Assembly (NCBI GenBank): GCA_965248435.1
Contig: OZ252100.1
Location: 5,344,001-5,408,000, forward strand
Origin: Candidatus Latescibacterota bacterium
Lineage (GTDB): Bacteria > Latescibacterota > UBA2968 > GCA-2709665
Direction: 5' to 3'
DNA: 64,000 nucleotides
This document shows, piece after piece, positions 11,722-62,457 of the stretch (positions are counted from its first letter, which is position 1; each line of letters opens with the position of its first letter). The notes beneath the pieces were generated by a model. It was not told the origin of the DNA. It ran no database searches and was given only the letters and a program-made list of their open reading frames with translations. Position numbers and translations under genes: made by a program.

Positions 11722-12945
11722 TGACCTGCCCCCACCTATGTATCCACATCCAGAGTTAGGATGCGGTTGCAACTAGCGGTCCTAAGACCGTTTCAGGCGC
11801 CGGCGGCCTATAGCCAAGCGAGCTGTGTGGGCGGACCCGATTGTACTGCCGTCGCCACACCTCGGTCAACACCTTTGCCTCCTGCAGCGTCGTGAAGATC
11901 TCACCGTTGAGGAGTTCATCCCTGAGTTTCCCGTTGAAGCTTTCGATGTAGCCGTTCTCCCACGGACTACCCGGCTCGATGAACAACGTCCCGACCTCCA
12001 ACCTCGAGAGCCACTCCCGGACGGCTTTGGCCACGAACTCGGGCCCGTTGTCCGATCTGATGTGTTTCGGGATGCCGTGCCTCAACATCAGCCCGGCCAA
12101 CATCCGTAGAACGTCCCGCGAGCTCTGCTTGCGGGCAACTTCTATCGCCAGGCACTCGCGGGTGAACTCGTCGACCACCGTCAGGAGCTTCAGGGGCCTC
12201 CCTTCCTGGGTCCGATCGAATAGGAAGTCGTAAGCCCAAACGTGGTTGCCGTGCTCCGGTCTGAGCCTGATGCAGGAACCGTCATTGAGCCACAGCCGAC
12301 CGCGCTTCGGCTGTCTGGCGGGCACCTTCAGCCCCTCCTGACGCCAGATCCGCTCCACCCGCTTGTGGTTCACCCGCCAGCCGTCACCCCTGAGCAGGGC
12401 CGTGATCCTACGGTAGCCATACCGCCCGTATTCGCTGGCCAGAGAGACGATGCTCGCGGTCAGAAGCTCCTCGTCGTCTCCCACCCTGGGCGTGTATCGC
12501 TGGGTGCGCCTCACCTGTCCCAGCACACGGCACGCCCGACGCTCGGAAACGGTCAGCACCTCACAGACGTGCCCGACCGTCTGACGCCGACGCGTCGGGC
12601 TTAGAAGTTTCCCCGGGAGGCTTCCTTCAGGATCGAGATGTCCAGAGCCTGGTCGGCGACCAGCCTCTTCAACCGTTGGTTTTCCTGATCGAGCTCTTTC
12701 AGGCGCCGGGCTTGATCGACTTCCATTCCGCCGTATTCACGGCGCCAACGGTAGTAGGTCTGCTCGCTGATGCCGAGATGGCGCGCAGCCTCACCGATGG
12801 TCTTGCCCTCGGAGATGAGGATCTCCGCTTGCCGGAGGTGCCCGATGATCTGCTCTGCGGTATAACGCTTTCTGGCCATAATGACCCCTTTCTGGTTACC
12901 CATATCCTAACTCTAGGAATGGGAACAATCCAGGGGGTCAGGTCA
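11722..12945 (-). mobile_element. IS3-family (IS407 group) element
   Basis: IRs tgacctgccccc / gggggtcaggtca; orfA 12601-12879 and orfB with GGGGAAAC frameshift window. Confidence 0.9.
11756..12879 (-). CDS. IS407-group transposase OrfAB (programmed -1 frameshift near 12605)
   Basis: OrfA MARKRYTAEQII...TYYRWRREYGG; OrfB YGYRRI, WAYDF, RSDNGPEF, PGSPWENGYIESFNG. Confidence 0.92.
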
Positions 12946-22854: not shown

Positions 22855-24104
22855 TGAGGCGTTTTGAAATTGTGGACACACCGAGAACCAAAGTATCTTC
22901 CGTCAGGAGGTGTGTCTATGAAAGGGAAACCGAAACGGACATTTGATTCCGATTTCAAGCGTGAAGCAGTCCGGATCGCGGATGCCGGCGACGTGACGGA
23001 TCGGCAGGTAGAGCGAGACCTGGGGCTGTACCAGGGAGCGATCCGCACGTGGCGCAAGGAACTTGAAGCCGACCCTGAAGAGTCCTTCCCGGGTACGGGG
23101 CACCAGAAGCCCCTGGAGGAGGAGAACCGCCGTCTGCGTCGCGAGCTGGAGATCGCTCGTGAGGAACGGGACATCCTAAAAAAAGCAGTCGCCATCTTTT
23201 CAAAGACACCGAAAGCCGGTTCCGGTTCATGAGGGACCACCGCTGGGAATTTTCGGTGGAGAGGATGGCGAAGGTCCTGGAGGTATCCAAGAGCGGTTTC
23301 TATGCCTGGCTGCTGCGGCCCGAGAGCGCCAGAAAGAGGGCCCGGCGGCTTCTGGACGCCCGAGTCAGAGCGGCGTTCGAGGCGCACAAAGCTCGCTACG
23401 GCAGCACGAAGATCGCCCGGTATTTGACCGGCCAGTGCCATCCGTGCAGCCGCACGCGAGTTGCCCAATCAATGCGCCGGCAGGGCCTGCGGTCGAAGGT
23501 CGCACGGAAGTTCAGGGCCACAACGGACTCGAATCACCATCTGGCTGCGGCGCCGAACCTGCTGGATCGCAATTTTGACATCGACGCGCCGAACAGGGTG
23601 TGGGCCAGCGACATTACGTATCTGCCGAGCAAGGCTGGCTGGTTGTATCTGGCGGTCTTCATCGACCTGTTCTCGCGGCGCATCGTCGGGTGGTGCGTGA
23701 GCACCAGCCTGCGGCACGAGATGGTCCTCAAGGCGCTCTCGCGTGCTATCCGTGCCCGGCGTCCGCCAAAGGGGCTGATGATCCACTCCGACCGCGGCAT
23801 CCAATACTGCTGCGAGGGGTTCCGGGAAAAGATCGCCGAATATGGGTTCGTCCAGAGCATGAGCCGAAAGGGGAACTGCTGGGACAACGCAGTGTCCGAG
23901 TCCCTTTTCCGGTCCCTCAAGACCGAGTGGGCTTACCACATCGACCTGGACGACCTCGAGCACGCCGAGCCAGAACTCTTCGAATACATCGAGGTCTTCT
24001 ACAACAACCAGCGGCTGCACGCGTCTTTGGATTACGTATCTCCAGCCGCCTTCGAACACCAAAAAGCGGCTTAGTTCACCGTCCACTTTTTCAAGGCCAC
24101 ATCA
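22855..24104 (+). mobile_element. IS3-family element, copy 2 (orfA 22918-23232, orfB 23229-24074)
   Basis: Same IRs and proteins as copy 1; proteins differ at two positions (A/T in OrfA, G/C in OrfB). Confidence 0.95.
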
Positions 24105-41214: not shown

Positions 41215-42999
41215 CTAGAAGAAATTGAAATCGGTACGGATCGCCCACGTGTGTTCTCTGGTGTTCCCTCTCTCCCCGCTCGGGAGGGCGAGGTTGTCTC
41301 CCAACATGGATTCGTAGGAGACCCGCAGAAGAAGATCTCGGATCGGTTCATAAGTAAGCGAAAATCCCAGTCGAGTGCGCTTTTCCAGTATGCCATCCAG
41401 GAAGCGTTTACTCGGAGGATCCGAGGGCCTTCTTCCTGCCTCGGCATCGCCCCCCACATTCTCCAACAAAACCCCCTCCGAACCGATGACATTTTCGCCC
41501 TGCCTCTCCCTGTCCAAGGAGAACGCGAACAAGAGTGAAGGCGAAAAGTGATGGATAACGCGTCCGAATATGCGGTCGGCGTTGGGGCCGACAGGGTAAC
41601 CCAGCAGAGCATCGAAATGTTCATAGGTGTTGATGGCGAACTTGTGGGAGTATACAAAGGGCTCCAATCGGACGTATTCCAGGGACAATTCTGTGTCGTG
41701 GAGACCGAACGGGTCAACCCATTGGAGTCCGAACTGCAGAGCGTATTTATTTGCGAATGCCCCGGGGGTGAACTTTTTCAGATCATCGAACAGCACAGCA
41801 AAGTAGAGCCAAAGATTTTGTCTTGGATTGCCGCTGAGGTCGAGGCCAACGAGCATATTGTCATTGTCGCCCAAGTAGGTCTGCGCGGCGGTTAACACGG
41901 TCGCTGGGTTGGCGTATAAAAATTCGAGTGACCTGTCGCCGTAAACGACGGATTCCTGAAGTCCCAGGAGCACTCCTCTGGGGAACGAGACCTCGAACCG
42001 ATGCGCTGCCAGGTGCTTGGAGCGGCGAAAGGTGCGCAAGTGGCCGTTGTCGAGTCTGGTTCGAGAGGTATCGATCAGCCCTTCACGCGCACGGGGGAAC
42101 CCCACGACGTGGATAAACCGAAATCGACCGTGTTCGGCTCTCATGCGAACGATCGCGTAGGACGAAGCCTTGTCCGAGAGCAAAAGGTTTCCTGTCCTTC
42201 CCGGGCCCCAATCCAGGCTTGTTTTGCCTATGTCAATGTCGAACCAGGGCGTTGCCAGGATGAATTGAAACTCGGCCTGGCGGAAGTCGACGGATTTCCC
42301 TTTCAACTGGATGTCCTCAATGGGTTTGGCGATCACGTCTCCACGGGATAGGCGGACTCGCGTACTCTGTTCCCTGGCTTCGTAATGCCGAACTCGAAAC
42401 CCAAAGCGATTATGGTAGGTGCCGCGAACGATCGCGCCGAGATAGGTTTGAGAAACGATTTCCCGGGCGCGTGCGCCGCCCCGTATCACGAGTACTTGCT
42501 CGCGAATCAGCGGGTCCAAAACAAACGCTGCTGAGGAATCCTGCCAGGCAAAAAGGTTGTTTCCAGACGATATGCGTTCGATAAGGCCGCTCTGATGCGA
42601 ATCATGAGCCCCCGCCTTACCGAGCGTGGTCAGTTCCCACCTGAATTCGGCGCGGTGCCTCTCGAGGATACCCCGTTCGGTTTTCGAGAGGCGGCCCCCT
42701 GATTCTGCCGTTTGAAGGATATCCAGAAGAAGAAGGGCCGCACGATTTCTTGTGAACGGTCGGTGGCCGGGAACGGACTGCTTGAGCCAGCCACGGGCCT
42801 GAAATCGGTCGACCGTTCGATAGATGCGATGTGAGAGGGGAACGTCCGGGCTTGGATCTTCACCAAAGGCGGGAACTGTGGACAGCGCCAAGCAGGTAAG
42901 AACGGTGAAGAGCGATTTCACGGAAAAGTGGACCGTTCGATTCGGGGAAAGGGGAGAAATTGACCGGATCGAACGAAAATATGAGCACACAACGTACAA
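41215..42999 (-). CDS. capsule assembly Wzi-like outer-membrane protein
   Basis: RPFTR, WGPG..GNLLLS, AAHRFE, ESVVYG, LGYPVGPNAD; terminal FF (true start probably downstream). Confidence 0.75.
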   Translation of the reverse strand: MYVVCSYFRSIRSISPLSPNRTVHFSVKSLFTVLTCLALSTVPAFGEDPSPDVPLSHRIYRTVDRFQARGWLKQSVPGHRPFTRNRAALLLLDILQTAESGGRLSKTERGILERHRAEFRWELTTLGKAGAHDSHQSGLIERISSGNNLFAWQDSSAAFVLDPLIREQVLVIRGGARAREIVSQTYLGAIVRGTYHNRFGFRVRHYEAREQSTRVRLSRGDVIAKPIEDIQLKGKSVDFRQAEFQFILATPWFDIDIGKTSLDWGPGRTGNLLLSDKASSYAIVRMRAEHGRFRFIHVVGFPRAREGLIDTSRTRLDNGHLRTFRRSKHLAAHRFEVSFPRGVLLGLQESVVYGDRSLEFLYANPATVLTAAQTYLGDNDNMLVGLDLSGNPRQNLWLYFAVLFDDLKKFTPGAFANKYALQFGLQWVDPFGLHDTELSLEYVRLEPFVYSHKFAINTYEHFDALLGYPVGPNADRIFGRVIHHFSPSLLFAFSLDRERQGENVIGSEGVLLENVGGDAEAGRRPSDPPSKRFLDGILEKRTRLGFSLTYEPIRDLLLRVSYESMLGDNLALPSGERGNTREHTWAIRTDFNFF

Positions 43000-43178
43000 G
43001 TCAAGAAAAACCCGGGGTCTGAGACAGCGGCCTAGAACGTCGAAGCCTAAGTTTTATTAACACTTAGTGCATTCAGCCCGCCGCTTGAATTGTCTTGACA
43101 GCTTTGGGGCATTTTGTTATTTACTAGCACCGTATTGCGCTTTCGAAGGCGCCTAGATCCCAAAGTTGGAGTCCAACG

Positions 43179-46100
43179 ATGATGCGAAGAATTGGAAGCG
43201 CTGTTCTGTGGATCATCGCGCTTTTCATGCTTTCATCGGTGACCGTTTTCAATCCTGGACAGGTCACCGATTGGTTTATCAAGCTGTTCGGCATTCAGCC
43301 GAGCAAGCCAGAACTGAGGCCAGTGATCGTCTCGGAGAGAGATCGGGAGATCAAAGAGATCGCCGAATCGATCACTGCATCACACCTGCGCGAGACCGTC
43401 GGAGCCCTATCCAGTCTTGGGTCAAGGGTCCCTGGGTATCCCGGACATCGACAGGCCTTTGAGCACATAAAACGTGAGTTTGAGCAAATCGGGCTTCAGG
43501 GGATTACTGTAGAGAACGCCGAGGTAACCGTGCCCGTGGATAAAGGTGCCTCCCTTGTCTTGGCCCTGACCGGCGAAGAGATCCGTCTTTTCGGTCTCTG
43601 GCCGAATCATGTCCGGACCCCTTCGCTGCCCGAAGAAGGCGCAAGCGGGACGCTGATCTATGGCGGACGGGGCAGCTTTAAAGAATTGAACGGAAAACCC
43701 GTGAAGGGCGGCATTGTCCTCATGGAGTTCGATTCCGATCAGAGCTACCTGAACCCACGGATGCTTGGGGCGGCGGCTGTTGTCTTTTACGACAATGGGC
43801 GAGTAACCCAGGGGCAGGCGACGCAGAAATTTTTGCAGGTCCCGGTGGACGTCCCGCGATTCTGGGTAGAAGGGAAAGATGCAGACCGTTTACTGGCTCT
43901 GGCTAAAACGAGCGAGCACCAGGTCATCATCAGGTCCAGGATGGACTGGGAAAGGGTGCCGGCCCCGAACATTTATGGAATCATACCTGGCACGGATGAA
44001 TACATTTCCGACCGTCGGGAGCGGAAGTGGAAGGACGAGATGATTCTCGTCAGCGCCTTCTACGACGCGATCTCCGTCGTGCCGGGGGTCGCGCCTGGCG
44101 CCGAAAGCGCTGCCAATGTCGCTGCCCTGTTGGAGACGGCAAAGGCCTTGAAGAGGAATCCACCGAAATATTCCGTGATGTTCTTGGCCAATGGCTCACA
44201 CTTCCAGGGTCTTGCGGGCATCAACGACTTTCTCTACAAACACTCGCGAGAGAGCGAGCACTTTCGCGAGCTCATTCCTGAACACGAGAAGATCGATTTT
44301 CGGCTCTTTATCGGATTCGACCTGTCGAGCGAGATCGACAAGGTCGCGACATTTTCGCACGCGACCTTCTACAATCCGACCTGGAGGACGAACAACTATG
44401 AGAACAACCTCCTGGCCCCTTACGCCAAGAAGTTCGATCAGTATGATGCCAGGATTTTTCCAGGGGAAGCGCGCCACATCGATGCGGTCACACCCCCCAA
44501 GCGGACCTGGAAGAACTTCATGCCGATTCGTCTGGCTTTCGACAGCGAAGCGGTGAAGTTCGTCGGGAAGGAGGGCATCACCTTAGCAACTCCGTCCACG
44601 ATCCGGGAGCGCGTGGATACCCCTGTAGACAGGGTTGAATTCGTCAATTTTTCGAACCTGACGCGCCAAGTGCAGGCCTCGGTTGGTCTGCTGCTCAAGG
44701 CCGTCGAGGATCCAGAATTTTTCAGAGTATCAAAGTTGAAACTTGAAGACCTTGGTCACAGCCTAGAGGGCCGAATCCTGTGGTTCGAGCGCGACGTAGA
44801 TTTCGCCATTCCCAGAGTGCCGGTGCCGGGTGCGATCGTGACCTACGAACAAATCGGACCCGTGGCGAGCTGCGGAGGCGTGAGAACACTTGTCGTAGAG
44901 AAGACTGCGGAAGGGCCGATTTACCAGGGTGATCCTTCGAAGGGGCCGTCCTACGGGTCGAAGGATGAGGTCGAGGGGACGGGCCGTTTCAGATTTGATA
45001 TCATGCGCAATCGATTCGACAACAAGATCCTGGCTTATCAGATGGACGAAGATGGCCGGATTGTTTCAGCGCCCGACATGGGAACGGAAGGCGACAAAAA
45101 GTTCCCCATTCTCCAACGGTACGGCTGGTGGGAAAACGAAATGATGGAGGTACTGTTCAAGTGTCGCGCCATCAGTGTGTTCGAGATCATCGATTCGAGC
45201 TATCTCTCGGCTCTGGACTATATGACCGTGTTAAACGAAGGGGACACCAGACCTATCGAGTATGGTTACCACTACATTGAAAACCAGAGCATGAAAGAGG
45301 GAAATGTAACACGCGCGGCCGTGGCGTTTGCCGGTGTGGACTTCATGACCGGCGAGATAGAGCCTTTGAAGATTCTGATGAGCACGGGTCTATTCGGCGT
45401 AAAGTATCTGCTGATCAATGCGCCCCAGGAGTTCCTGGATTCTCCGGTATCCAAGTGGGATGTGAACCCGGAGATGTTGGAAACGTCTCGAGGCGTCGGA
45501 TATCCACCGGGCGTCATATTCAACCCTTCCTACCACGCGGCGAAGGACATGTGGGTCATCGACGATATCCGCATGAAACAGTTAGCTCAGTACGGAATAG
45601 AGAACGCCCGGCTTTCTCTTCTGCACGACGCGGCACGTGAGGCCCTCCTGGAAGCAAATGACCACCTGGAAGCTCAGGAGTACGAGGCATTCATGGCCGC
45701 TTCTCGACGGGCATGGGGGCTCGAAGCGAGGGGATATCCGGAAGTGATGTCCACGGCGAACGACACGGTTCGGGGAATCATCTTTTACTTTATGCTGTTG
45801 CTCCCGTTCTCATACTTCTGTGAACGCCTCGTCTTCGGCTTTTCGGACATCACGCGGCGATTGTTGGGATTCTCGGGTATCTTCCTTGCTTTCTTTATCG
45901 TCCTCCGGATGGTGCATCCTGCATTCCAATTGAGCAGCTCACCCTATATCATCTTTCTTGCGTTTGTGATCATGGCCCTTGGCGGGGTGGCCATGATCAT
46001 CGTGGTCTCCAAGTTCGGAGAAGAGGTCCGGAAGATGAAGCAGGCCGCGGCCGGCACCTACGAGGCCGATGTGGGTCGGCTGAGCGCGACAAGTGCAGCG

Positions 46101-47930
46101 ATTGTTCTGGGCATCTCCAATCTTAGAAAGCGCCCGCTAAGGACGGGTCTCACCGCCGCCACACTGACCCTTCTCACATTTACCGCGCTTTCCTTCACAT
46201 CCGTTCAGACGTCGATCAAGTTTTACCGTTTGCCCAGAGATAACAAGCCTGATTACCAGGGGGGACTGGTTCGAGACCGGGCGTGGAAGGGCCTGCAGGA
46301 GTCAACGCTGCATTACCTTGAGAGTGCGTTTGGAGAACGTGCGTTGATCCAGCCACGCGCCTGGTACCTATCCCAGGTCAAAGGGGAAAGGGCCTACCTG
46401 GGCTTCGAGCGTATCACTGAGAAATCAGCGGATATGGGGTCGCGCGACACCTATATCGATTTCGATGTGGGCATCACTACAGGTAAAGACAGCTTCGTTA
46501 ATGGGCTTTTAGGGCTCACCGATCGGGAGCCCGAAATCACCGGTGTTGACCGATTCCTGCTGAGTGGGCGGTGGTTCCTCCCGGGCGAGCGGTATGTCTG
46601 TATACTGCCAAACGACCTGGCAGAGCTGGTCGGGATCTTTCCTGAAGACGCCGGGAAGGCGGAGGTCGAGTTGCTGGGGAACGTGTTCACGGTGATCGGG
46701 ATCGTTGATTCGGAGGCTTTCAACAAATACAAAGACCTGGATGACGAACGCCTGACACCCGTGGACATGGTCGCAGAGAGAGACGACCTGGACGATGCGC
46801 AGGACCAGGATCCCCGGATCGTGGCATCGGCGCCCATCGAATCTTTCAATCATTTGGAGTCCACGAATGTCATGATTTTGCCGTATCAGTACGTTCGGGA
46901 CATGGGCGGTCCACTGAGTTCGATCGCGATCGCCCATTTCGTGGACGAGCGTGGGCAGTCGAAGGACAATTTCATCCCCGATATCGAGGAGTTCATGACC
47001 CGCGTCTCGCTCACGATGTTTGTCGGGCACGCTGAAGGGGTCACGGTCTATAGTTCCATCGGGAGCACCTCGCTGGGAGGATTAGCGGGACTGTTTGTTC
47101 CGATCCTCATCGCCGCTCTTATCGTGCTGAACACCATGATGGGGGCCGTCTACGAGCGGTTCCGGGAGATCGGGATCTACTCTGCAGTGGGCCTGGCGCC
47201 CAACCACATCGCGGCGCTCTTCCTGGCAGAAGCTGCCGTTTTCGCGACGATTGGTGCCGTGTTCGGCTATCTCATCGGTCAAGTCATGGTGATGCTGCTT
47301 TACGAACGGGGTGCACTCGGAGGATTGGAGCTGAACTACTCGTCGCTTTCCGCGATTTCAGCCACCCTGATCGTGATGGCCACCGTGTTTCTCTCTACGC
47401 TCTATCCGGCGAAGAAGGCTGCCGATATGGCCGTCCCGGACGTAACGCGAAAATGGGAGTTCCCGGAGCCGGATGGTGACAGGTGGGTCTTCGACTTTCC
47501 GTTTACGGTCGGTGGCGGAGAGATCCTGGGTATGTACACCTATCTCACGAGGGTATTCGAGTCCTACGGCGAGGGTTCTGTCGGGGATTTCGTGGCTGAC
47601 AAGGTCCGGTTTACATCCAGAGACCTGCACGGAGAACCACAGTATGAGATTCACCTTACAGCCTGGCTTGCCCCCTACGACCTGGGGATCAGCCAGCAGG
47701 TCGAACTCCAAGCGATTCCGACGGGCGAATACAACATCTACAAAATCGAGGTTGTTATTCATCGTCTGAGCGGGGATGTGGCTTCCTGGAAGCGGATCAA
47801 TCGGGGATTCTTGAACGTGCTTCGCAAAAGATTCCTCGTTTGGCGAACCATTCCACTTGATGTCAAGCATCAGTATGCCCAGGAAGGGGATCAGGTACTC
47901 CGGGGTGAAGCCCAAGAAACAAGCACCTGA
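43179..47930 (+). CDS. giant membrane protein: PA/M28-peptidase-like ectodomain + FtsX/MacB-type permease
   Basis: SRVPGYPG, SAFYDA, APGAES, then TM bundle, SNLRKRPLRT, VYERFREIGIYSAVGLAP, LYPAKKAA. Confidence 0.8.
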   Translation: MMRRIGSAVLWIIALFMLSSVTVFNPGQVTDWFIKLFGIQPSKPELRPVIVSERDREIKEIAESITASHLRETVGALSSLGSRVPGYPGHRQAFEHIKREFEQIGLQGITVENAEVTVPVDKGASLVLALTGEEIRLFGLWPNHVRTPSLPEEGASGTLIYGGRGSFKELNGKPVKGGIVLMEFDSDQSYLNPRMLGAAAVVFYDNGRVTQGQATQKFLQVPVDVPRFWVEGKDADRLLALAKTSEHQVIIRSRMDWERVPAPNIYGIIPGTDEYISDRRERKWKDEMILVSAFYDAISVVPGVAPGAESAANVAALLETAKALKRNPPKYSVMFLANGSHFQGLAGINDFLYKHSRESEHFRELIPEHEKIDFRLFIGFDLSSEIDKVATFSHATFYNPTWRTNNYENNLLAPYAKKFDQYDARIFPGEARHIDAVTPPKRTWKNFMPIRLAFDSEAVKFVGKEGITLATPSTIRERVDTPVDRVEFVNFSNLTRQVQASVGLLLKAVEDPEFFRVSKLKLEDLGHSLEGRILWFERDVDFAIPRVPVPGAIVTYEQIGPVASCGGVRTLVVEKTAEGPIYQGDPSKGPSYGSKDEVEGTGRFRFDIMRNRFDNKILAYQMDEDGRIVSAPDMGTEGDKKFPILQRYGWWENEMMEVLFKCRAISVFEIIDSSYLSALDYMTVLNEGDTRPIEYGYHYIENQSMKEGNVTRAAVAFAGVDFMTGEIEPLKILMSTGLFGVKYLLINAPQEFLDSPVSKWDVNPEMLETSRGVGYPPGVIFNPSYHAAKDMWVIDDIRMKQLAQYGIENARLSLLHDAAREALLEANDHLEAQEYEAFMAASRRAWGLEARGYPEVMSTANDTVRGIIFYFMLLLPFSYFCERLVFGFSDITRRLLGFSGIFLAFFIVLRMVHPAFQLSSSPYIIFLAFVIMALGGVAMIIVVSKFGEEVRKMKQAAAGTYEADVGRLSATSAAIVLGISNLRKRPLRTGLTAATLTLLTFTALSFTSVQTSIKFYRLPRDNKPDYQGGLVRDRAWKGLQESTLHYLESAFGERALIQPRAWYLSQVKGERAYLGFERITEKSADMGSRDTYIDFDVGITTGKDSFVNGLLGLTDREPEITGVDRFLLSGRWFLPGERYVCILPNDLAELVGIFPEDAGKAEVELLGNVFTVIGIVDSEAFNKYKDLDDERLTPVDMVAERDDLDDAQDQDPRIVASAPIESFNHLESTNVMILPYQYVRDMGGPLSSIAIAHFVDERGQSKDNFIPDIEEFMTRVSLTMFVGHAEGVTVYSSIGSTSLGGLAGLFVPILIAALIVLNTMMGAVYERFREIGIYSAVGLAPNHIAALFLAEAAVFATIGAVFGYLIGQVMVMLLYERGALGGLELNYSSLSAISATLIVMATVFLSTLYPAKKAADMAVPDVTRKWEFPEPDGDRWVFDFPFTVGGGEILGMYTYLTRVFESYGEGSVGDFVADKVRFTSRDLHGEPQYEIHLTAWLAPYDLGISQQVELQAIPTGEYNIYKIEVVIHRLSGDVASWKRINRGFLNVLRKRFLVWRTIPLDVKHQYAQEGDQVLRGEAQETST

Positions 47931-47959
47931 GTTTTAGCTACTAACGTTAAGGGGAAAAG

Positions 47960-49999
47960 TTGGCGACAGAACCGAGGTCAGGGCGTGAGGATGTAAGTCA
48001 GTACGAATCGATCATGCCGGATGAGGCGCCCTTCGAAGAGGGGTTCAACCTGAAGACCGTCTGGGCTATGCTGTTCGTCGGGTTGATCATGCTTCCCGGG
48101 GCGATCTATCTGGGTCTCGTCACGGGCCAGAGCATGGCCGGCGCTTCGGAATGGGTGACGATCATCCTCTTCCTGGAGATCGCGAAGCGATCGTTCGTGA
48201 GGCTCAAGACCCAGGAGCTGATCATAATCTACTGGGTGGCCGCCGGTCTGGTTGGAATCGGCGTCAGATTAGGGATCTCCGGGCACCTCTACGGAGGCCC
48301 TTTTGGCAACCTGGTCTGGGACCAGTACCTAATTCAAGCTCCGGCCGCCAAGGGGTTGGCAGAGTACATTCCCGACTGGGTCGTACCTCCGCTGGAATCG
48401 TCGGTCTACGCAGACCGCACGTTCCTGCACACTGTCTGGATCAAGCCGGTCCTCGTTCTTTTTCTCGTGATGCTCGTCACCAACACCGCTCAGCTTTCGT
48501 TCGCCTACGTGATGTTCCGCGTGACCAACGACGTGGAGCGGCTGCCCTTTCCGATGGAGGCCGTGCACGCCCGCGGCGCCACAGCCCTGGCAGAAACTTC
48601 CGCAAAGCAGGAGGGGTGGCGATGGCGCGTGTTCAGCACAGGGACGTGTATCGGTCTGATCTGGGGGCTTATCTATGTCGTCGTCCCGACACTGTCGAGC
48701 ATCTTTCTGACAGATACGGTCCAGATTCTGCCCATTCCTTTCATTGACTTCACTGCAGAGATAAAGACGATCCTGCCCGCGGCCATTTTCGGGATCGGGA
48801 CCGACCTGGGCCACCTGTTCATCGGGATGGTGCTTCCGTTCTATGTCGTCGTAGGACAGTTCTTCGGCTCCGTTCTGGCAAATCTTGTGATTAATCCCAT
48901 GCTCTACGATTACGGCATCTTGCAGCGCTGGTCTCCCGGAATGACCTCGGTCCCGGCCCGGATCTCCAACACCTTCGACTTCTGGCTGAGCTTCTCGATC
49001 GGGACCTCCCTGGTGGTCGCGTTCACCGGGTTCTACATGGTGGGCAAGATGCTCCTGGAACAACGACGGACCCGGGGTGCAGGCCCTCGGGCGAAAGGCG
49101 TTCCCCAGAGCGATGTTCCGAAAGGGAGAGGGGATGTGAAGTTGATTTATCCGATCGTGCTATGGGTCATGGCAACGTTTGGGTTCGTCGCAATGTGTCA
49201 GATCCTGGTGCCGGAATTCCACTGGGGATGGGTCGTCTTCTTCGGATTCATTTACTCTCCGATTTCATCTTACATTGGGGCCAGGATGATCGGGCTGACC
49301 GGCAGTCCCTATGGGTCCAGCGTCCCTTTTCTCAGGGAGGCCGCGATCTTCCTTTCCGGCTATCAGGGGGCCGCGGTCTGGTTCGCCCCGCTCCCGCTGC
49401 ACGATTACGGAAAGATGGTGCGCCCCTTCAAGCAGATGGAGCTGACCAAGACCAAATTCGGGAGCTACATCAAGATGGTGGCCGCCACGATGGTTGTGAT
49501 CTTCATTTGCAGCTTCGTTTTCTACGAATTCATCTGGAGGCTGGGTCCGATCCCCTCATCGACCTATCCCTATGCGGAAACGATCTGGCCCTTCGACGCA
49601 ACCCTGCAGACGATGTGGATCAAGTCGACGCTTCCTGCTGGAGAGTTCGGGGGTGCAGCGGGCATGCAGCTGCTGCGCGAGATCATCAAGCCTGAATATA
49701 TCGGCGCCGGCCTGATCGGCGGTGGCGCTACTTACATTCTCATGACTGTCCTCAAACTCCCGACGCTGGCCTTCTTCGGGTTTGTAGGCGGATTGGCCGA
49801 GTGGCCGCATTTTGTCCTGTTGATGTTTGTAGGTGCACTGCTGGGCCGTTTTCACTTCGCGAAACGGTTTGGTGAGGCGAAGTGGAAGGCGTACGCACCG
49901 ATCCTTCTGGCAGGCTATTCCTGCGGGATGGGGTTAATCGCCATGACGTCGATCGCGATCGCCCTGATTTCGAAGGCCGTATCGCAAGTCATATTTTGA
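47960..49999 (+). CDS. polytopic membrane protein, OPT/YSL-like peptide transporter
   Basis: Many TM segments; QEL, ERLPFP, PIPSSTYP motifs. Confidence 0.65.
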   Translation: MATEPRSGREDVSQYESIMPDEAPFEEGFNLKTVWAMLFVGLIMLPGAIYLGLVTGQSMAGASEWVTIILFLEIAKRSFVRLKTQELIIIYWVAAGLVGIGVRLGISGHLYGGPFGNLVWDQYLIQAPAAKGLAEYIPDWVVPPLESSVYADRTFLHTVWIKPVLVLFLVMLVTNTAQLSFAYVMFRVTNDVERLPFPMEAVHARGATALAETSAKQEGWRWRVFSTGTCIGLIWGLIYVVVPTLSSIFLTDTVQILPIPFIDFTAEIKTILPAAIFGIGTDLGHLFIGMVLPFYVVVGQFFGSVLANLVINPMLYDYGILQRWSPGMTSVPARISNTFDFWLSFSIGTSLVVAFTGFYMVGKMLLEQRRTRGAGPRAKGVPQSDVPKGRGDVKLIYPIVLWVMATFGFVAMCQILVPEFHWGWVVFFGFIYSPISSYIGARMIGLTGSPYGSSVPFLREAAIFLSGYQGAAVWFAPLPLHDYGKMVRPFKQMELTKTKFGSYIKMVAATMVVIFICSFVFYEFIWRLGPIPSSTYPYAETIWPFDATLQTMWIKSTLPAGEFGGAAGMQLLREIIKPEYIGAGLIGGGATYILMTVLKLPTLAFFGFVGGLAEWPHFVLLMFVGALLGRFHFAKRFGEAKWKAYAPILLAGYSCGMGLIAMTSIAIALISKAVSQVIF

Positions 50000-50105
50000 A
50001 ATTCGAGAACATCGTAATCTGATCAATCCATCGCCCGGGTGAATCGTTTGCCCGGGCAATTGCATATTGTGGCTTTTGCCCTTAAGGGGTTCGACAGGAG
50101 CTTGG

Positions 50106-51491
50106 ATGAACTTCGGCACGGCCCTGAGCAGGATAGAGCGCCCCTTTACGTTCGCAGTTGTTGGGGATACGCACTTCACAAAAGCAGAGTTTCGCACGAA
50201 TGCGGGCGACCCGGCACATCACAGCTACGACCTGACCCCTGAAGGTTACATTGAGAATGTGAGTCTGGTGCTCGCGCCGATGAGGGAGACGCTCAAATCG
50301 CTGTCCCCTGAATTCATTGTGATGACGGGAGATCTCGTAGAGGGGGGGCTCGCGGGCGGGTTTGCCCGGGCAGAGATGTCGGCGTGCCTCAGATTCCTCG
50401 ATGGCTTTGAAATCCCACTGCTTTTGGCAAGAGGTGACCACGATGAATCGGATGTCTTCGGCGACGTCGTGCTTCCTTATTTGTCGAAGCGAATGGGTTG
50501 GGAGTTCGCGACTCCCTACTATTTCACGGATGTTGCGGGCTGCCGTCTTGTCGTCTTCGATACCGGCTCCTGGACGAGCGGATGCGGCCAGTTGGGATGG
50601 TTCCAGAAGTTGATGAGAGAGTGTAAGGAGGCCCAGATAGATCGTGTTTTCGTATTTGGTCACCATCCGATCTGGCCTGTCGCACGTGCCTTTTACACGA
50701 AGTATGACTTTCATCGCGAGATTTCTGATGTGTTGGAGAAACGCTCTGTGGACGCCTATTTCTGCGGTCATACACACAACCAGAGTCTCATCGTTCGGCG
50801 TAGCGGCAGCCGGATGACACCTCAAATGATGGCTGCGCCGATCGGTTTGCCCGAAGAGGTGCCGACGCCGCTGGATCGCGTCCAGGCGCTCCTCGAGGAG
50901 CGGGGAGACAAGCCGATCTACTGGCCAGGATACCTTGCCCATACCGTGGCAGGTTGGTTTCTGGTTCACGTAAACACAGATTCCGTCCAGGTCGAATGGC
51001 ATCACGTGAATCGGGGACCCGAGGCCTCGGTTGAATGGCGACGGGCAGGCGAGATCACCTCATTCTGGCACATGAGTCATCCCCCCGACGCACGAATGAT
51101 TTCTGCCGACCTGACACGTATTCGTCGAGGGTTCCTTAGATTCTGTGCTTGGGACGCGACACAGTCTGGAAAGCGCGTTACTCTGAATGGCAGAGAAATC
51201 GGGGATTTACCTGAGTCCAACAACTTTACACCCACGAAAATGGAGCTCCCGTCCTGGGCGCTTGATGAGCTTCGCTTGGAGAATCGATTAGAGATTCATT
51301 CACCGGGTTACGAAGCGAGTACCGTAGGCAACCTCGTGCTGGAGGTCATACTCAGAGGAGGACGAGTGTTACGTACTGGACCTACAGGGGAACTCTTCAC
51401 CTGGTCGAACAGGTGGGACGAATGGCGGAACCCCAAACTCCAGAAGCTACGATCAGGCCGTCCCATCATCACTTCGCTTTCATTCCGTTGA
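50106..51491 (+). CDS. calcineurin-like metallophosphoesterase with C-terminal beta domain
   Basis: GDTH, TGDLV, GDHD, GHHP, CGHTH; RBS aggag. Confidence 0.85.
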   Translation: MNFGTALSRIERPFTFAVVGDTHFTKAEFRTNAGDPAHHSYDLTPEGYIENVSLVLAPMRETLKSLSPEFIVMTGDLVEGGLAGGFARAEMSACLRFLDGFEIPLLLARGDHDESDVFGDVVLPYLSKRMGWEFATPYYFTDVAGCRLVVFDTGSWTSGCGQLGWFQKLMRECKEAQIDRVFVFGHHPIWPVARAFYTKYDFHREISDVLEKRSVDAYFCGHTHNQSLIVRRSGSRMTPQMMAAPIGLPEEVPTPLDRVQALLEERGDKPIYWPGYLAHTVAGWFLVHVNTDSVQVEWHHVNRGPEASVEWRRAGEITSFWHMSHPPDARMISADLTRIRRGFLRFCAWDATQSGKRVTLNGREIGDLPESNNFTPTKMELPSWALDELRLENRLEIHSPGYEASTVGNLVLEVILRGGRVLRTGPTGELFTWSNRWDEWRNPKLQKLRSGRPIITSLSFR

Positions 51492-51521
51492 GCTTTCTAC
51501 AATAGGGAGTTACTCCGACGC

Positions 51522-53594
51522 ATGGCCGACCATCGATTCACGAACCGCTTGGTCCACGAGACAAGCCCATACCTTCTACAGCACGCGCACAACCCGGTGG
51601 ACTGGTTTCCTTGGGGTGAAGAAGCCCTCGCGAAGGCACGTGAGGAAGACAAACCGATTTTTCTGAGCATCGGATACTCGGCCTGCCACTGGTGTCACGT
51701 GATGGAACACGAATCTTTCGAGGATGAAGAGATCGCGCGCGTGCTGAACGAACATTTTGTTAGCATCAAACTTGATCGCGAAGAACGCCCAGACCTGGAT
51801 GAGATCTACATGAACGCCGTGCAGATGATGACGGGATCAGGGGGCTGGCCGATGAGCATGTTTCTTCGTCCTGACTGCCTTCCGTTTTACGGAGGCACCT
51901 ACTTTCCTCCGGAGAGCCGATACGGCCGTCCTGGGTTTCGCGAAATCATTGAGGCCGTCGCGCGGCAGTACAAAGAAAACCCAGAGAAGATCGAAGAGGC
52001 TTCCTCGAACCTGGTTGCGGGGCTGAAGCGGCTCACCCACTTGAAGTCGGCAGAAGGGGATTTGAACCCCGATATGCTGGAGGAGGCCTTCTCGAAGATC
52101 GCTGGAAATTTCGATCCGAAAAATGGGGGGTTTGGCACACAGCCCAAGTTCCCGAATACGATGAACCTGTCAGTGTTTTTGAGGGAATACGCAAGAACAG
52201 GGAACAAACGTGCAATTGAAATGGTCAGGCTGACGCTTGAAAAGATGTTCCAGGGTGGGATCTACGATCAACTTGGAGGTGGGTTTCATCGTTATTCCGT
52301 GGACGATCACTGGCTGGTGCCCCATTTCGAAAAGATGCTTTATGACAACGCACTCCTTGCGAGGCTGTTTCTGGAAGCCTATCAGGCAACCGGAGAGGCC
52401 GATATGGCGCGCGTCGTGCGGGAGACACTCGCGTATGTGATGCGTGAGATGACACATCCTGAAGGGGGATTCTATTCTACACAGGATGCCGACAGCGAAG
52501 GTGAAGAAGGCAGGTTCTTCGTTTGGGATCGGGAGGAGGTGATCCGACTTCTGGGTGAGGAGGATGGAACGCTTTTCTGTCGGGTTTTCGACGTTCAGGA
52601 GGGAGGGAACTTTGAGCAAGGGAAGAGCATTCTTAACATTCCTGTGGACTTGGAGACCCTGGCCCGGTTTCTCAACGAGGACGTTGGTAGATTAGAGGAG
52701 GTTGCGAATCGCGGAAGGAGAGTCTTGTTCGACGCACGAAAGAAGCGCTTCGCACCGTTCAGAGACGAAAAAGTTCAGACCAACTGGAACGGGCTGATGA
52801 TATCTGCCTTTGCACTGGCGCATCAGGTCTTTCACGAGCAGCCGTATTTGGATGCAGCCGAAAAGGCAGCGAACTTCATCCTGGACCGGATGCGAGACGA
52901 GGATGGGACCCTGCTCCACACATTCAAGGACGGGCAGGCAAAGCTGAGGGCGTACCAGGACGACTACGCCAGTTTTATATGCGCACTTATCGATCTTTAT
53001 GAGACGACGTTTGAAGCACGATGGCTGGAGGTCGCCCTCGAGCTGACGGAGAACATGCTCGATTCATATTGGGACGATGCTGAAGGGGGGTTTTTCTTCG
53101 TTGGAGAGGATCACGAGGCCCTGATCGTGCGGTCCAAAAATCCTTATGACAACGCACTCCCGTCTGGAAACGCATTGGGGGTCATGGCCCTTCTCCGACT
53201 AGGTAGCCTTTTGGGCCGCGAGGATTTCTGGGATAGGGCGGAGCGGAATCTGAAGCTTTTCGAGCGCAATCTCCAGGAAGTACCATCCGGGTTCGGACAT
53301 ATGCTGTGCGCGCTCTACTACTTCCTGGAGCGTCCCGTAGAGATCGCCGTGATCGGGGCGCCGGAACGGAAAGAAACGAAGGCGCTTCTTGAAATTGCAT
53401 TCAAACGGTGGATCCCCAACCGGGTGATTGCCCTGCTCAACCCAGGGGATGGGATGCAGGACCTCATTCCATCGGTGCTCGACAAGGCCCAAGTCGATGG
53501 GCGACCCACGGTCTATGTCTGCAAAGATTTTGCCTGTTCCGCGCCCGTCACCCAGCCTGACGATCTGGATGGTCTGCTCGGGGGCAGTCCCTGA
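51522..53594 (+). CDS. YyaL/SSP411 thioredoxin-domain protein (DUF255)
   Basis: [40 protein letters not shown]. Confidence 0.95.
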
Positions 53595-53666
53595 GCGCAC
53601 GCGCCCCAAAACAGGTCAATGGAAGGGAGGCTCTGCTGAGAAAAAGGCAGGGCCTTTTGAATTTGA

Positions 53667-54251
53667 CTACAGTGCCTTGTACTTCAGCTTTCGAGGCTCG
53701 ATGGAAACGGACTCGATGACGACCCTGGAGACCGGATTGTCGTTTTCGTCTCGGGCTACCTTTGAGATTTCTTCTGCGACATCCATGCCCTCGATCACGT
53801 AGCCAAAAACCGTGTAGCTGTGGTCGAGGGCCGGCTGAGGTTCGAGGCATATGTAGAACTGGCTGCCGCTGGATTCCCACTTTGGGTTTACCTCATCCGG
53901 TAGCCTTGCAGCAGCTACCGCCCCGCGAGTGTGCTGATGTCGGACCTCCGCCGGAAGCGTATATCCCGGGCCCCCAAGCCCATCATTGGAGCGCTCGGTG
54001 TCTTTCGTGTTGGGGTCCCCCCCCTGGACGACGAAGCCCGGTATCACACGGTGAAAGGCAAGATTGTTGTAGAAGCCATCGCTCGCCAGTTTCTTGAAGT
54101 TCGTTGTCGTCCTTGGCGCATCCTTATGGAACGCGATGACGATACGACCCATACCGGTTTTGATCACGCCAACTTCGTCGACGACGTCTGCCTCACAGGC
54201 CGCCAGGGCAAGACATGGCAACACACACGAAAAGAATCTCGATCTCGTCAT
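53667..54251 (-). CDS. cyclophilin-type peptidyl-prolyl isomerase (lipoprotein)
   Basis: FHRVIPGFVVQGGDP, SQFYI, YTVFG; lipobox LAAC. Confidence 0.93.
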   Translation of the reverse strand: MTRSRFFSCVLPCLALAACEADVVDEVGVIKTGMGRIVIAFHKDAPRTTTNFKKLASDGFYNNLAFHRVIPGFVVQGGDPNTKDTERSNDGLGGPGYTLPAEVRHQHTRGAVAAARLPDEVNPKWESSGSQFYICLEPQPALDHSYTVFGYVIEGMDVAEEISKVARDENDNPVSRVVIESVSIEPRKLKYKAL

Positions 54252-54289
54252 TCTCTCTCCTTAGGTCCGTGTAGTGAATGAAGTCCAGA

Positions 54290-54877
54290 TCAATAGAAGG
54301 ATTTAGGTCCCTTCCTTGGACGCTTGACCGGCGCGGGTTCCTCTCCATCGGAGATGGCATTCTCATCCAGGATCTTTCTGGACACATAAATAGGGATATC
54401 CATTCGCACGGCGAGGGCCATCGCGTCGCTCGGCCTGGAATCGACCTGTAGGCGCAGATCATCGTCCCGCTGCAAGTTTAGGACGGCAAAGAATGTAGCG
54501 CCCTCTCTTTGCGGATCCGTGGGCCGCAATTCGTCTACCAGGATAGAGGTGATTCGAATGTCGGTGGCCTCCAAAACCGTATGAAAGAGGTCGTGCGTCA
54601 GCGGACGCGGGAATTCCTTGTTGTAGAACCTTCGCCAGATTGCCTGACCCTCACAAGGCCCGATCCAGATACGGAGAAACCGCTTCCCGAGCGGATCGTG
54701 GAGCCTCACGATGTACTGGTTCTGATGGTCCCGTTTGACGTCGTAAACCTCTGTCCTTACCGCTTCCGAAGGGGTCTCCTGGACCTGGTTTGGAGCCGAC
54801 CGCGCCCGGCCAGCGAAGCAGGTCGCAAGAGTGATAAGCGGTAGATATAACCTCACGAACCGAAAGCCAAAATTCAT
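54290..54877 (-). CDS. bifunctional nuclease family protein (DUF151)
   Basis: IWIGPCEG, RPLTHDL, DSRPSDAMALA. Confidence 0.9.
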   Translation of the reverse strand: MNFGFRFVRLYLPLITLATCFAGRARSAPNQVQETPSEAVRTEVYDVKRDHQNQYIVRLHDPLGKRFLRIWIGPCEGQAIWRRFYNKEFPRPLTHDLFHTVLEATDIRITSILVDELRPTDPQREGATFFAVLNLQRDDDLRLQVDSRPSDAMALAVRMDIPIYVSRKILDENAISDGEEPAPVKRPRKGPKSFY

Positions 54878-61024: not shown

Positions 61025-61918
61025 ATGAGTAGAAAGAAGCCCAATTCTGTTGCCATTTTGGAGATGGCCGGGGACCTTGCCCAGCAGACGTCAGCGGATG
61101 TGATCGTTCTGATTGCCGACTCCGGAGTGAAACGGGCCTCGCTGGAAGTCTTGAACGATGTCTGCCAGACGCTTGTCGTGACTCGGAACAAGCGCTTCCT
61201 GAGGGGAATCGAAGAGAGCGGCGTGTGGCGCGTGCAGTTCGAATTCGAACTCGATGATGTGGCACGGTTTGAACGGGTACGGCAGGGCATTATTCTGGGT
61301 GTGGAGGCAGGATACATTCCTAAAGGGAGCCGGCTCGTCTGCCTGACCGGTGTGATGGGGAGCAGTGGCGTAGATACACTCCTGCTCACAGACGCGAGTT
61401 TAGGTTTTGAGGACTTCCATCCAGATAGCGTGGCAGCCCTGGCAGGTGACCTGCCTGTTGAGGTGGTAAAGGCGGTGCTCGACCTGGCGCTGGACATCGG
61501 CCAGGAGGGTCGAGAGGGGGAGCCGGTTGGGACACTCTTTGTCGTCGGGGATTCTGAGCAGGTCATGGGCCATTCAAAAGAGATGACGTTCGACCCGTTC
61601 CGGGGCTATTCCGAGAGAGAAAAGAACATCTGCAGTCCAGACATCGGGGAAGGGATCAGGGAGGTCGCCCTGATGGATGGCGCATTTATTGTTCAGGACG
61701 ATGGTGTTATTCTAGCGGGTGGGCGATACATTACGGCTGATGTGAAGGGGCTGAGCCTGCCCAAGGGACTCGGGGCGAGACACGTCGCGGCAGCGGCCAT
61801 TACGAAACACACAAACGCGATTGCCGTGGCCGTTTCGGAGTCCTCGGGCACGCTGCGTGCCTTTAGAGATGGCGAGATCGTCCTTCGCCGAGTGCCTTCA
61901 CGGAGAGCGAAGGGTTAG
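61025..61918 (+). CDS. diadenylate cyclase (DisA_N/DAC domain, DacZ-like)
   Basis: EGREGEPVGTLFVVGD, DGAF, GLGARH, VSES; no TM segments. Confidence 0.88.
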   Translation: MSRKKPNSVAILEMAGDLAQQTSADVIVLIADSGVKRASLEVLNDVCQTLVVTRNKRFLRGIEESGVWRVQFEFELDDVARFERVRQGIILGVEAGYIPKGSRLVCLTGVMGSSGVDTLLLTDASLGFEDFHPDSVAALAGDLPVEVVKAVLDLALDIGQEGREGEPVGTLFVVGDSEQVMGHSKEMTFDPFRGYSEREKNICSPDIGEGIREVALMDGAFIVQDDGVILAGGRYITADVKGLSLPKGLGARHVAAAAITKHTNAIAVAVSESSGTLRAFRDGEIVLRRVPSRRAKG

Positions 61919-61929
61919 GATTGTAGAGA

Positions 61930-62457
61930 ATGGTACTCGATCCTGAAGAGATCAGCCTGATCAAGGACGGCAAAGGTGTCGAGCTCATCCGGCGTGGGGT
62001 TCGACAGGGGATTGCGAAGATCGTCAAGGCGTTCCCGAATAGCAGTCCGCACGGCCACGTTGGACTGTTGGACGAAGATGGGTGCGAGATCGGAATGATC
62101 CGGTCTCTCGAAAAGCTGGATGCCGCGTCACGGGACCTTCTGGATGAAGCTCTGAGGGCCGCCTACTACGTTCCTCCAATCCTTGAGGTTCTTTCCGTAG
62201 AATCTCAAGGCGGCGGTTACGTCTGGCAAGTGTCGATGGAGAGCGGGGAGCTGTCTTTCCGAACACAGGGGGCCCACACCTTGAATACTTCACAGTTTCC
62301 AAAAATTGTCGTCACAGATGAGAACGGGAGGCGATATCGCATCGAAGATTACCCGGCCCTGGATGCCTACAGCAAGGAGGCCCTGCGGGACCTGCTCCCC
62401 GACTACGTCAGGCGGGCCCAGATGGGTCTTTCGAGTCGCGTGAGACGCAAGCCTTGA
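61930..62457 (+). CDS. DUF1854-like protein
   Basis: KAFP.S, LLDEDGCEIG, YYVPPI..V, W.V, VTDENGRRYRI. Confidence 0.7.
   Translation: MVLDPEEISLIKDGKGVELIRRGVRQGIAKIVKAFPNSSPHGHVGLLDEDGCEIGMIRSLEKLDAASRDLLDEALRAAYYVPPILEVLSVESQGGGYVWQVSMESGELSFRTQGAHTLNTSQFPKIVVTDENGRRYRIEDYPALDAYSKEALRDLLPDYVRRAQMGLSSRVRRKP

Follow-up and report, generated by a model that had tools for sequence, protein, structure and literature searches.

FtsEX-EnvC and YbbAP-TesA are the described systems that come closest to the proteins presented here: these systems, which act together with a periplasmic hydrolase or its activator (PMC12646458), join a four-helix MacB/FtsX module, with a periplasmic domain between transmembrane (TM) helices TM1 and TM2, to a hydrolase-shaped partner. 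The DNA analysed, called the window below, is a stretch of 64,000 nucleotides (G000:C1:5344001-5408000) from the 5.67-Mb, two-contig genome of a Candidatus Latescibacterota bacterium (assembly GCA_965248435.1). It encodes in adjacent genes a protein of 1583 amino acids (aa), named here the giant, and a 679-aa putative secondary transporter of the OPT superfamily, named the carrier. Open reading frame (ORF) calls and Pfam agree with an earlier note, made from the sequence alone, on this arrangement: the two genes are separated by 29 bp and are followed by a metallophosphoesterase gene (Table 1). AAGGGG is found upstream of the TTG start codon of the carrier gene. The giant has the module, the periplasmic domain and the hydrolase-like part of FtsEX-EnvC and YbbAP-TesA. 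Several features set it apart from these systems. Its hydrolase-like part is continuous with the permease and its site is non-canonical; it has three further TM helices and a novel cytoplasmic domain; an ATPase is neither part of the chain nor encoded in cis; and the gene that constantly accompanies it encodes a secondary carrier of the OPT fold.

The best fold and sequence matches of giant residues 963–1424 are MacB, LolC/LolE, YtrF and HrtB (PF02687, PF12704), but the gene of the giant has no neighbour that encodes a cognate ATPase, a membrane-fusion protein or a lipoprotein partner, and the N-terminal 960 residues of the giant have no counterpart in those proteins. In the transferrin receptor, nicalin and nicastrin a non-catalytic PA/M28-like fold serves binding. 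Like the transferrin receptor and nicalin, the giant is membrane-anchored and has an ectodomain of PA and M28-like parts in which the zinc ligands are replaced. It differs in that its replacements are near-invariant and place a Glu, a His and two Asp where the ligands used to be. The carrier shares its fold and, through chained homology, its sequence with the OPT family (TC 2.A.67, PF03169), which includes barley Yellow Stripe 1, and differs from it in forming a clade of its own, obligately linked to the giant. To our knowledge no OPT member has an accessory membrane protein. None was found in the literature, nor anything on a giant combining M28 with FtsX/MacB, on DUF6785 or on OPT carriers of the Latescibacterota, subscription journals being outside the coverage of the search. 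The joining of a type VII ATP-binding cassette (ABC) permease with a hydrolase-like partner, which is a known kind, to OPT-superfamily carriers is thus far undescribed.

The best reading of the two genes is that they form the core of an undescribed inner-membrane uptake/processing module of the Latescibacterota. Their pairing is kept across this phylum, from whose metagenome-assembled genomes nearly all relatives of the giant in public genomes come. A scan of one genome per species gave 547 giant relatives, and 80 loci were kept for a survey by ORF calling and BLASTP against reference proteins of this genome. An OPT-clade gene was found in 56 of the 80 loci. Genes of DUF6785/DUF6784 (PF20581/PF20580), a distant sister clade of the carrier that is an alternative or a second partner of the giant, were found in 43, and 24 loci have both. 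Among the five loci where no OPT-superfamily gene was seen, four have less than 2 kb of flank and the fifth (L059) has 4.3 and 5.0 kb, while an OPT-clade or DUF6785 gene is found in every one of the 63 loci whose flanks both reach 5 kb or more. A same-strand OPT-superfamily gene lies at most 1 kb from the giant in 57/80 loci. The gene orders vary (giant-OPT, DUF-giant-DUF, giant-DUF-OPT, OPT-DUF-giant) and some neighbours overlap by 4 nt. The conserved unit is the giant with one or two OPT-superfamily genes, from the carrier clade and/or DUF6785/DUF6784.

The same picture is obtained from 151 genomes across the phylum searched with the carrier and with giant residues 430–900. Each was found in the same 137 genomes and both were not found in the same 14. 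Joint conservation of the giant and its OPT neighbour had been set beforehand as a point on which the proposal of the earlier note would stand or fall, and the two are conserved together, in 75 of the 80 loci within the available flank as well as in these 137 genomes. The giant segment has 1–12 matches per positive genome, which are not copy numbers. In near-complete genomes a giant lies within 15 kb of at least 46 of the 52 OPT-clade rows, among the giant matches listed. The identity between two giants correlates with that between the carriers linked to them (r 0.92 for 53 pairs, a value reached by 0 of 999 permutations), with a contribution of shared species history; for pairs below 60% identity r is 0.58.

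Three giants are encoded in this genome. The other two are 41% identical to the window giant, and each adjoins an OPT-clade gene (41% identical to the window carrier), located directly downstream in one locus and beyond a PhyH gene in the other. All three giants have such a neighbour and all three OPT-clade genes of the genome are so placed. Both paralogous giants are also preceded by a 688-aa gene whose product matches DUF6785 (322.9 bits) and DUF6784 (71.1 bits). The window carrier has no match to these two Pfam models, and BLASTP between it and a DUF6785 protein is not significant (E 2.9), their relation being visible with profiles only. Using hhalign, DUF6785 aligns with the OPT-positive relatives of the carrier described below (97.9%, E 5e-13, 569 columns) and with the carrier clade (94.6%, E 7e-8, 572 columns). 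These profile comparisons show DUF6785 as a further, remote clade of the OPT superfamily.

The paralogous loci have features of their own. Two DUF6785-giant-OPT-clade clusters, C1:3066486-3076102 (L012) and C1:3629626-3641228 (L013), are near-identical. The second is flanked by transposase/integrase-like ORFs and has the PhyH dioxygenase gene inside its giant-carrier gap; the pair looks like a recent duplication via insertion sequences. The 830-aa carrier of the first cluster (L012:13610-16102) has an acidic and Pro-rich insertion of ~150 residues near its C-terminal end, with a weak EF-hand-like match (E 0.22) far below the cut-off. A tandem array of six DUF6785/DUF6784 genes is found at C1:3992906-4005873, and none of this expansion lies inside the window. 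Directly after many DUF6785 genes there are runs of ORFs of ~470–565 aa that have no Pfam match at E 1e-8 (for example L106:7832-12780, L107:10100-13702 and L109:10203-13484) and may be an unrecognised paralogous family of those loci.

The giant is built of a periplasmic PA/M28-type head of ~840 residues above a MacB-type module, with a small alpha+beta domain in place of a fused ATPase on the cytoplasmic side. Its N-terminal signal-anchor would place the head in the periplasm and anchor the protein N-in. Pfam recognises Peptidase_M28 at residues 283–419 (31.1 bits, cut-off 21.3) and, slightly below the cut-off of 23.9 bits, a PA domain at residues 171–238 (22.2 bits). A head profile made from 35 giant-family members and searched against solved structures matched the PA+M28 aminopeptidase 2ek8 (E 5e-14, profile positions 58–353), YwaD (E 1.9e-8), the Vibrio aminopeptidase (E 1e-5 to 3e-4), nicalin (E 1.4e-4) and the transferrin receptor (E 6e-4). 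The region that follows, residues 521–866, has no Pfam or PDB sequence match, and matches of residues 505–870 in the ESM Atlas were all below 0.9, with nothing usable.

The motifs AFYD (at 293), GAESA (307), GSHFQ (339) and DTPVD (480) are found where the earlier note had placed its altered M28 motifs. Site positions were mapped by HMMER against the Vibrio aminopeptidase and YwaD, and by hhalign with three M28 proteins from this genome that are canonical (97.4%, E 1e-11); the two sets of alignments agree (Table 1). The canonical zinc-ligand set His, Asp, Glu, Asp, His is not found in the giant, nor is the general-base Glu, whose position is taken by a His. The last ligand position falls on T481 in a forced, low-confidence hhalign alignment, and no His is present at either D480 or T481. 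Conservation was examined in 120 sequences, namely 118 database relatives longer than 1400 aa and the two paralogues of this genome. H341, D381, D480, D296 and R476 are each present in 120/120, E309 in 119 and F342 in 118, while position 294 is variable (Y 59, F 32, H 28, N 1). Judged from the alignments, the canonical two-zinc site and its base are absent from the head. The site described beforehand as degenerate is non-canonical indeed, but it looks rebuilt rather than decayed, because the replacement residues are nearly fixed whereas a decayed site would drift. A single metal could be accommodated by the near-invariant Glu, His and two Asp, as in a site rebuilt rather than lost, and a rebuilt, possibly single-metal site appears as likely as a dead one.

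The extra TM helices that connect the head region to the base have invariant E882, R883 and H913-P914-A915-F916. The MacB-type module is composed, in this order, of an amphipathic N-helix, TM1, a Porter/Sabre-like periplasmic domain (~1019–1288) and TM2–4. Its FtsX domain (residues 1306–1416) scores 53.7 bits against a Pfam cut-off of 25.5, and MacB_PCD matches weakly (E 0.0017, below the cut-off) in a paralogous giant only. The AlphaFold2 (AF2) model of residues 860–1583 has a pLDDT of 72 (about 90 in the periplasmic domain) and a pTM of 0.45. Top Foldseek matches of the base are MacB, LolC/E, a pneumococcal MacB-like transporter, HrtB, YbbP, BceB and FtsX, the match to MacB 5gko having E 6.6e-12 and probability 1.0. 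VIA-align gave Z 14–17 for the FtsX domain with TM2–4, the values for YtrF and MacB being 17.3 and 16.1, and Z 12.1 for the MacB periplasmic domain 3ftj (root-mean-square deviation 3.6, 180/214 aligned). Hydropathy, Foldseek and VIA-align together bear out the earlier call of extra TM helices followed by a MacB/FtsX permease: the base belongs to the MacB/FtsX-type (type VII ABC) permeases and carries a periplasmic domain of their kind between TM1 and TM2. VYERFREIGIYSAVGLAP, the stretch after TM2 (ERFREIG), aligns in HMMER with the E-R-x-x-E-I-G of MacB and YtrF. This stretch, which we take to be the ATPase-contacting helix, is invariant in the giant family.

The cytoplasmic tail has 165 aa overall and its domain follows the order beta-alpha-beta4-alpha, with many invariant residues. 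VIA-align matches are helix-grip/KA1/START/Aha1-like folds at Z 8–9, borderline values of a level commonly seen, and the ESM Atlas gave nothing usable for this domain. As modelled, it is not an ABC ATPase fold.

Of 8000 candidates scored against the carrier, 1739 are relatives at E 1e-3. Some are called “peptide transporter” by NCBI, and a few close ones have a precomputed PF03169 label. It matches 919 clusters of a 50%-identity library, and four of the 13 cluster representatives scanned pass the Pfam OPT cut-off across nearly the whole model. These four relatives (~630 aa) are ~30% identical to the carrier in end-to-end alignment. Between the carrier and proteins passing the OPT cut-off phmmer gives E 1e-43 to 1e-65, and hhalign of the carrier clade with the OPT-positive relatives gives 100% (E 2e-125, 619 columns). 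The AF2 model of the carrier (pLDDT 86.6, pTM 0.87) matches barley Yellow Stripe 1 (7wst/7wsr) in Foldseek with E ~1e-10 and TM 0.60–0.69, the next match being at E 3e-3 and TM 0.11. A PDB sequence search with the carrier profile returned a chance-level aquaporin match only. From homology and model together, the carrier is best described as a divergent OPT-superfamily clade that is not filed as a PF03169 member. The neighbour had therefore been rightly called OPT-like, by chained homology and by fold, though it has no Pfam match of its own. A complex predicted for the carrier and giant residues 860–1019 scored 0.01 against a mark of 0.32 and was counted neither way. No giant-carrier fusion was found at E 1e-20 among 4426 candidates in a search for longer homologues, which is weak evidence.

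We put forward, tentatively, an account in which the giant captures or processes a periplasmic substrate and hands the product to proton-driven OPT-fold carriers. The head would take a periplasmic oligomer by its free end, likeliest a peptide or an amino-sugar-bearing fragment, and would possibly trim it at the rebuilt single-metal site E309, H341, D381 and D480. The MacB-type module would be a platform presenting the product to the carrier or carriers, which would import it using the proton gradient; no dedicated ATPase would then be needed. PMC3061005 describes characterised OPT members as cation-coupled uptake carriers, and reports for prokaryotic members peptide uptake predicted from gene context, with one subcluster predicted to take up oligosaccharides. 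A peptide is proposed as substrate because of the ancestry of the head and these gene-context predictions. The earlier note had read the head as a degenerate peptidase fold serving as a peptide receptor for the carrier. The non-canonical site, the lack of an ATPase in cis, the OPT neighbour and the conserved pairing support this in part; the site itself looks rebuilt rather than plainly degenerate. A stronger form of the account, that an ATPase-less MacB-type permease is physically and energetically coupled to proton-driven OPT-fold carriers as a hybrid transporter class, seems to us rather unlikely. Carrier cycling, or ligand capture by the single-metal head, would then move the periplasmic domains.

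Several observations weigh against the account of capture and proton-driven import. The carrier fails the Pfam OPT model (PF03169), with no Pfam match even at E 10 and none in NCBIfam, and it lacks the NPG and KIPPR strings that occur in many OPT members according to PMC3061005. The carrier has one conserved pair, N312-P313 (N in 52/59 and P in 39/59 sequences), that is at most a possible equivalent. The model of the C-terminal half of the giant is of moderate quality and its global TM-scores to MacB are only ~0.2, therefore the relative placement of domains in the base model is unreliable. The 14 genomes without the pair comprise all 13 of one family (f10) and a single genome with a completeness of 57%; the absence is essentially one clade and counts as one event, not 14, and related genomes are not independent. 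The substrate is also not necessarily a peptide. About 23 DUF6785 genes are present in the genome, 21 of them away from any giant, and genes of glycan catabolism prevail around them (5 sulfatases, GH127, BNR, 4 GFO/IDH/MocA, 2 DHDPS and 2 PIG-L), peptide-related neighbours being few (gamma-glutamyltranspeptidase and M81). These neighbours suggest that the expanded DUF6785/DUF6784 genes encode oligosaccharide or sugar-acid importers. Because of them the substrate of the module may be a non-peptide, and they point the same way as the oligosaccharide subcluster of PMC3061005. The last group of opposing observations concerns ATPases. The kept ERxxEIG stretch argues that an ATPase or an equivalent partner may dock there. 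Two MacB-type ATPases of the genome have no adjacent permease. In families f9 and f12 a small FtsX + ATPase pair is encoded 2.2–2.5 kb downstream of the carrier. In f10, which lacks giants and carriers, the best match to the corresponding ATPase of this genome, located at 4.50 Mb, is only 44–51% identical (5/5 genomes).

The main alternative, which we consider doubtful, is that ATP does drive the giant, as in a genuine type VII ABC machine, through an ATPase encoded at another place in the genome. Hydrolysis would move the periplasmic domains, as in FtsEX-EnvC, LolCDE and YbbAP-TesA, and control the head of the giant itself or extract an envelope component, while the carrier would recycle the released product. 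Known type VII systems do pair with periplasmic hydrolases, as PMC12646458 describes, and the invariance of the stretch shared with MacB and YtrF speaks for this explanation. Against it, no ATPase is found in cis. No ABC ATPase was detected in the window by scanning its ORFs and the genome-wide ABC_tran matches, the nearest of which (C1:5414281) is ~22 kb downstream, beyond the window. When the 9 FtsX and 50 ABC_tran matches of the genome are mapped, no ABC is near any of the three giants. The absence of an adjacent ATPase noticed at the outset extends to the related loci: in 80/80 none lies less than 4.3 kb from the giant, and one is found within 10 kb in 10/80. Nine loci with an ABC ATPase ~8 kb downstream form one group. 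This ATPase was rejected as a partner: in L066, the one locus of the group inspected, its ORF overlaps that of a BPD_transp_1 importer permease, with unrelated genes lying between it and the giant, and the ATPase of the group is taken for a component of a binding-protein-dependent importer.

Candidate ATPases are encoded at a distance. One of the two without adjacent permease stands alone at C1:2242846-2243649, and the other is beside lysS. The solitary one has 70–91% identical relatives in families f1, f2 (window's order), f4, f6, f11 and f13, but the best matches in f3, a family with 2–10 giant matches per genome (again not copy numbers), are ~57–58% identical. In f9 and f12 the giant-carrier pair is followed by a 294-aa gene without Pfam match, a PqqD-like gene, a gene for a small, 228-aa FtsX and one for a MacB-type ATPase (L118:11235-14366, likewise in L119–L121). 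In small-genome relatives of f9/f12 a TPR protein gene is present between DUF6785 and the giant. The f9/f12 ATPase is 76–78% identical to the one at 4.50 Mb in this genome, and f10 has neither giants and carriers nor a close relative of it. Against a role for this ATPase, it has its own small FtsX partner, and here the pair (C1:4500015-4501621) is beside an S41 peptidase, far from the three giants. Homologues of the 294-aa and PqqD-like genes are found here at 0.608 Mb, near neither the giants nor the 4.50-Mb pair. PqqD-like genes, proposed beforehand as co-occurring, do follow the pair in f9/f12, but in this genome they are dispersed from it; they and the 294-aa gene were rejected as part of the core. 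The conserved, non-ATPase domain after TM4 could moreover occupy the cytoplasmic face of the giant. The distribution would fit an ATPase supplied in trans, but this fit rests on the absence from a single clade.

We regard as improbable that the giant is a sensor or regulator, in which a ligand signal would pass from the head through the MacB-type helices to the tail, gating the carriers or reporting nutrients in the manner of BceAB and its kinase. Such a function would make sense of the conserved cytoplasmic domain with its non-enzymatic-looking fold, of the lack of a motor in cis and of the non-canonical peptidase site, and BceAB-type permeases are among the fold matches of the base. No kinase, transcription factor or signalling gene is a conserved neighbour in the survey, which tested few reference families. 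The tail fold match is borderline, and the near-invariant site residues suit chemistry at least as well as binding. Less probable still is a function in export or envelope assembly, with the OPT-fold protein exporting or flipping a compound, the MacB-type module expelling or inserting it and the head processing the cargo. MacB and LolC/E are indeed the best structural matches of the base, and a Wzi-like outer-membrane gene is found upstream of the giant in the window and in 4/80 related loci. Characterised OPT members are uptake carriers (PMC3061005), the sister DUF6785 genes are in catabolic clusters, and no membrane-fusion protein, TolC-like protein or ATPase is a conserved neighbour in a survey that was not aimed at these families. 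That giant and carrier are merely syntenic and work independently is very improbable: close relatives also keep the metallophosphoesterase and DUF255 genes, but the giant-carrier linkage outlasts changes of order and of partner clade in families down to ~40–50% identity, presence and absence coincide in 151 genomes, and all three paralogous pairs of one genome are linked.

Table 1. Features of the giant-carrier locus in the window and correspondence of M28 site positions in the giant
Feature	Position in window	Strand	Basis
Gene for Wzi-like outer-membrane protein, divergently transcribed, upstream of giant	41215..42999	-	Pfam
Giant gene, 1583 aa, ATG start	43179..47930	+	ORF call and Pfam
Hydrophobic signal-anchor, giant residues 5-23, after MMRR	43191..43247	+	Hydropathy
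PA + M28-like head, giant residues ~58-520	43350..44738	+	Profile matches, site mapping
Unassigned periplasmic region, giant residues 521-866, helical stretch at membrane end	44739..45776	+	
Three extra TM helices, giant residues 867-942	45777..46004	+	Hydropathy, AF2 model
MacB/LolC/FtsX-type module, giant residues 963-1424	46065..47450	+	Pfam, Foldseek, VIA, HMMER
Cytoplasmic alpha+beta tail domain, giant residues 1429-1559	47463..47855	+	AF2 secondary structure
Putative OPT-fold carrier gene, 679 aa, TTG start	47960..49999	+	ORF call, homology, fold
Metallophosphoesterase gene (Metallophos)	50067..51491	+	Pfam
Gene for DUF255 thioredoxin-like + six-hairpin-like protein	51522..53594	+	Pfam
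M28 first ligand His: F294 in giant			Computed alignments
M28 bridging Asp: E309 in giant, one-residue deletion			Computed alignments
M28 general-base (catalytic) Glu: H341 in giant			Computed alignments
M28 ligand Glu/Asp: F342 in giant			Computed alignments
M28 next ligand Asp: D381 in giant, retained			Computed alignments
M28 last ligand His: D480 in giant			Motif register only (Vibrio RIHTTQD, giant RERVDTPVD)

The genes downstream of the carrier are less constant. The metallophosphoesterase gene is syntenic in 23/80 loci and the DUF255 gene in 22/80, and because they recur only beside giants at least 69% identical to that of the window, the first is probably synteny and not core of the module, and the second is read as synteny among close orthologues. 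A promoter and terminator scan of positions 42800–54400 gave hits at chance level, and the bounds of the operon are not delimited by it. DUF1854 genes had been named beforehand as possibly co-occurring with the pair, probably because of the one at 61930–62457. That gene was rejected, being 14 kb downstream of the giant with housekeeping genes between. This gene comes after one for a DAC-domain (c-di-AMP cyclase-like) protein with a DacZ_P sensor domain, the two covering 61025–62457.

Elsewhere in the window, integrase-core (rve) and DDE transposase ORFs are found at 5160–6005, 9929–11293, 11756–12559 and 23229–24074. The rve ORFs at 5160–6005 (-) and 23229–24074 (+) hardly differ in their Pfam profiles, as would be expected of copies of a single insertion sequence. 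The segment 15154–27461 encodes a radical SAM protein, a pyruvate-kinase-barrel-like protein, an uncharacterised nucleotidyltransferase (NTP_transf_5), two APH-type phosphotransferases, a TylF-like methyltransferase and a PhyH dioxygenase, and resembles a gene cluster for the modification of small molecules or glycans.

What defines type VII ABC proteins is that ATP drives the movement of their periplasmic domains. A phylum-wide family tied to secondary carriers and free of ATPase in cis would widen this definition; alternatively, a shared ATPase encoded elsewhere would be revealed. If it is true that the giant and its carriers form a hybrid class, OPT-superfamily carriers, of which the prokaryotic ones are essentially uncharacterised, would have their first known accessory or receptor subunit, and the type VII ABC fold would for the first time be seen to work independently of an ATPase. 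The rebuilt M28 site is also well suited to testing how an enzyme put to new use can be distinguished from a dead one. The Latescibacterota are uncultured degraders of sediments and of the water column. Because the module is present in 137/151 genomes, with three copies in the one described here, it probably serves this phylum as a main route by which nutrients are captured or the envelope is turned over.

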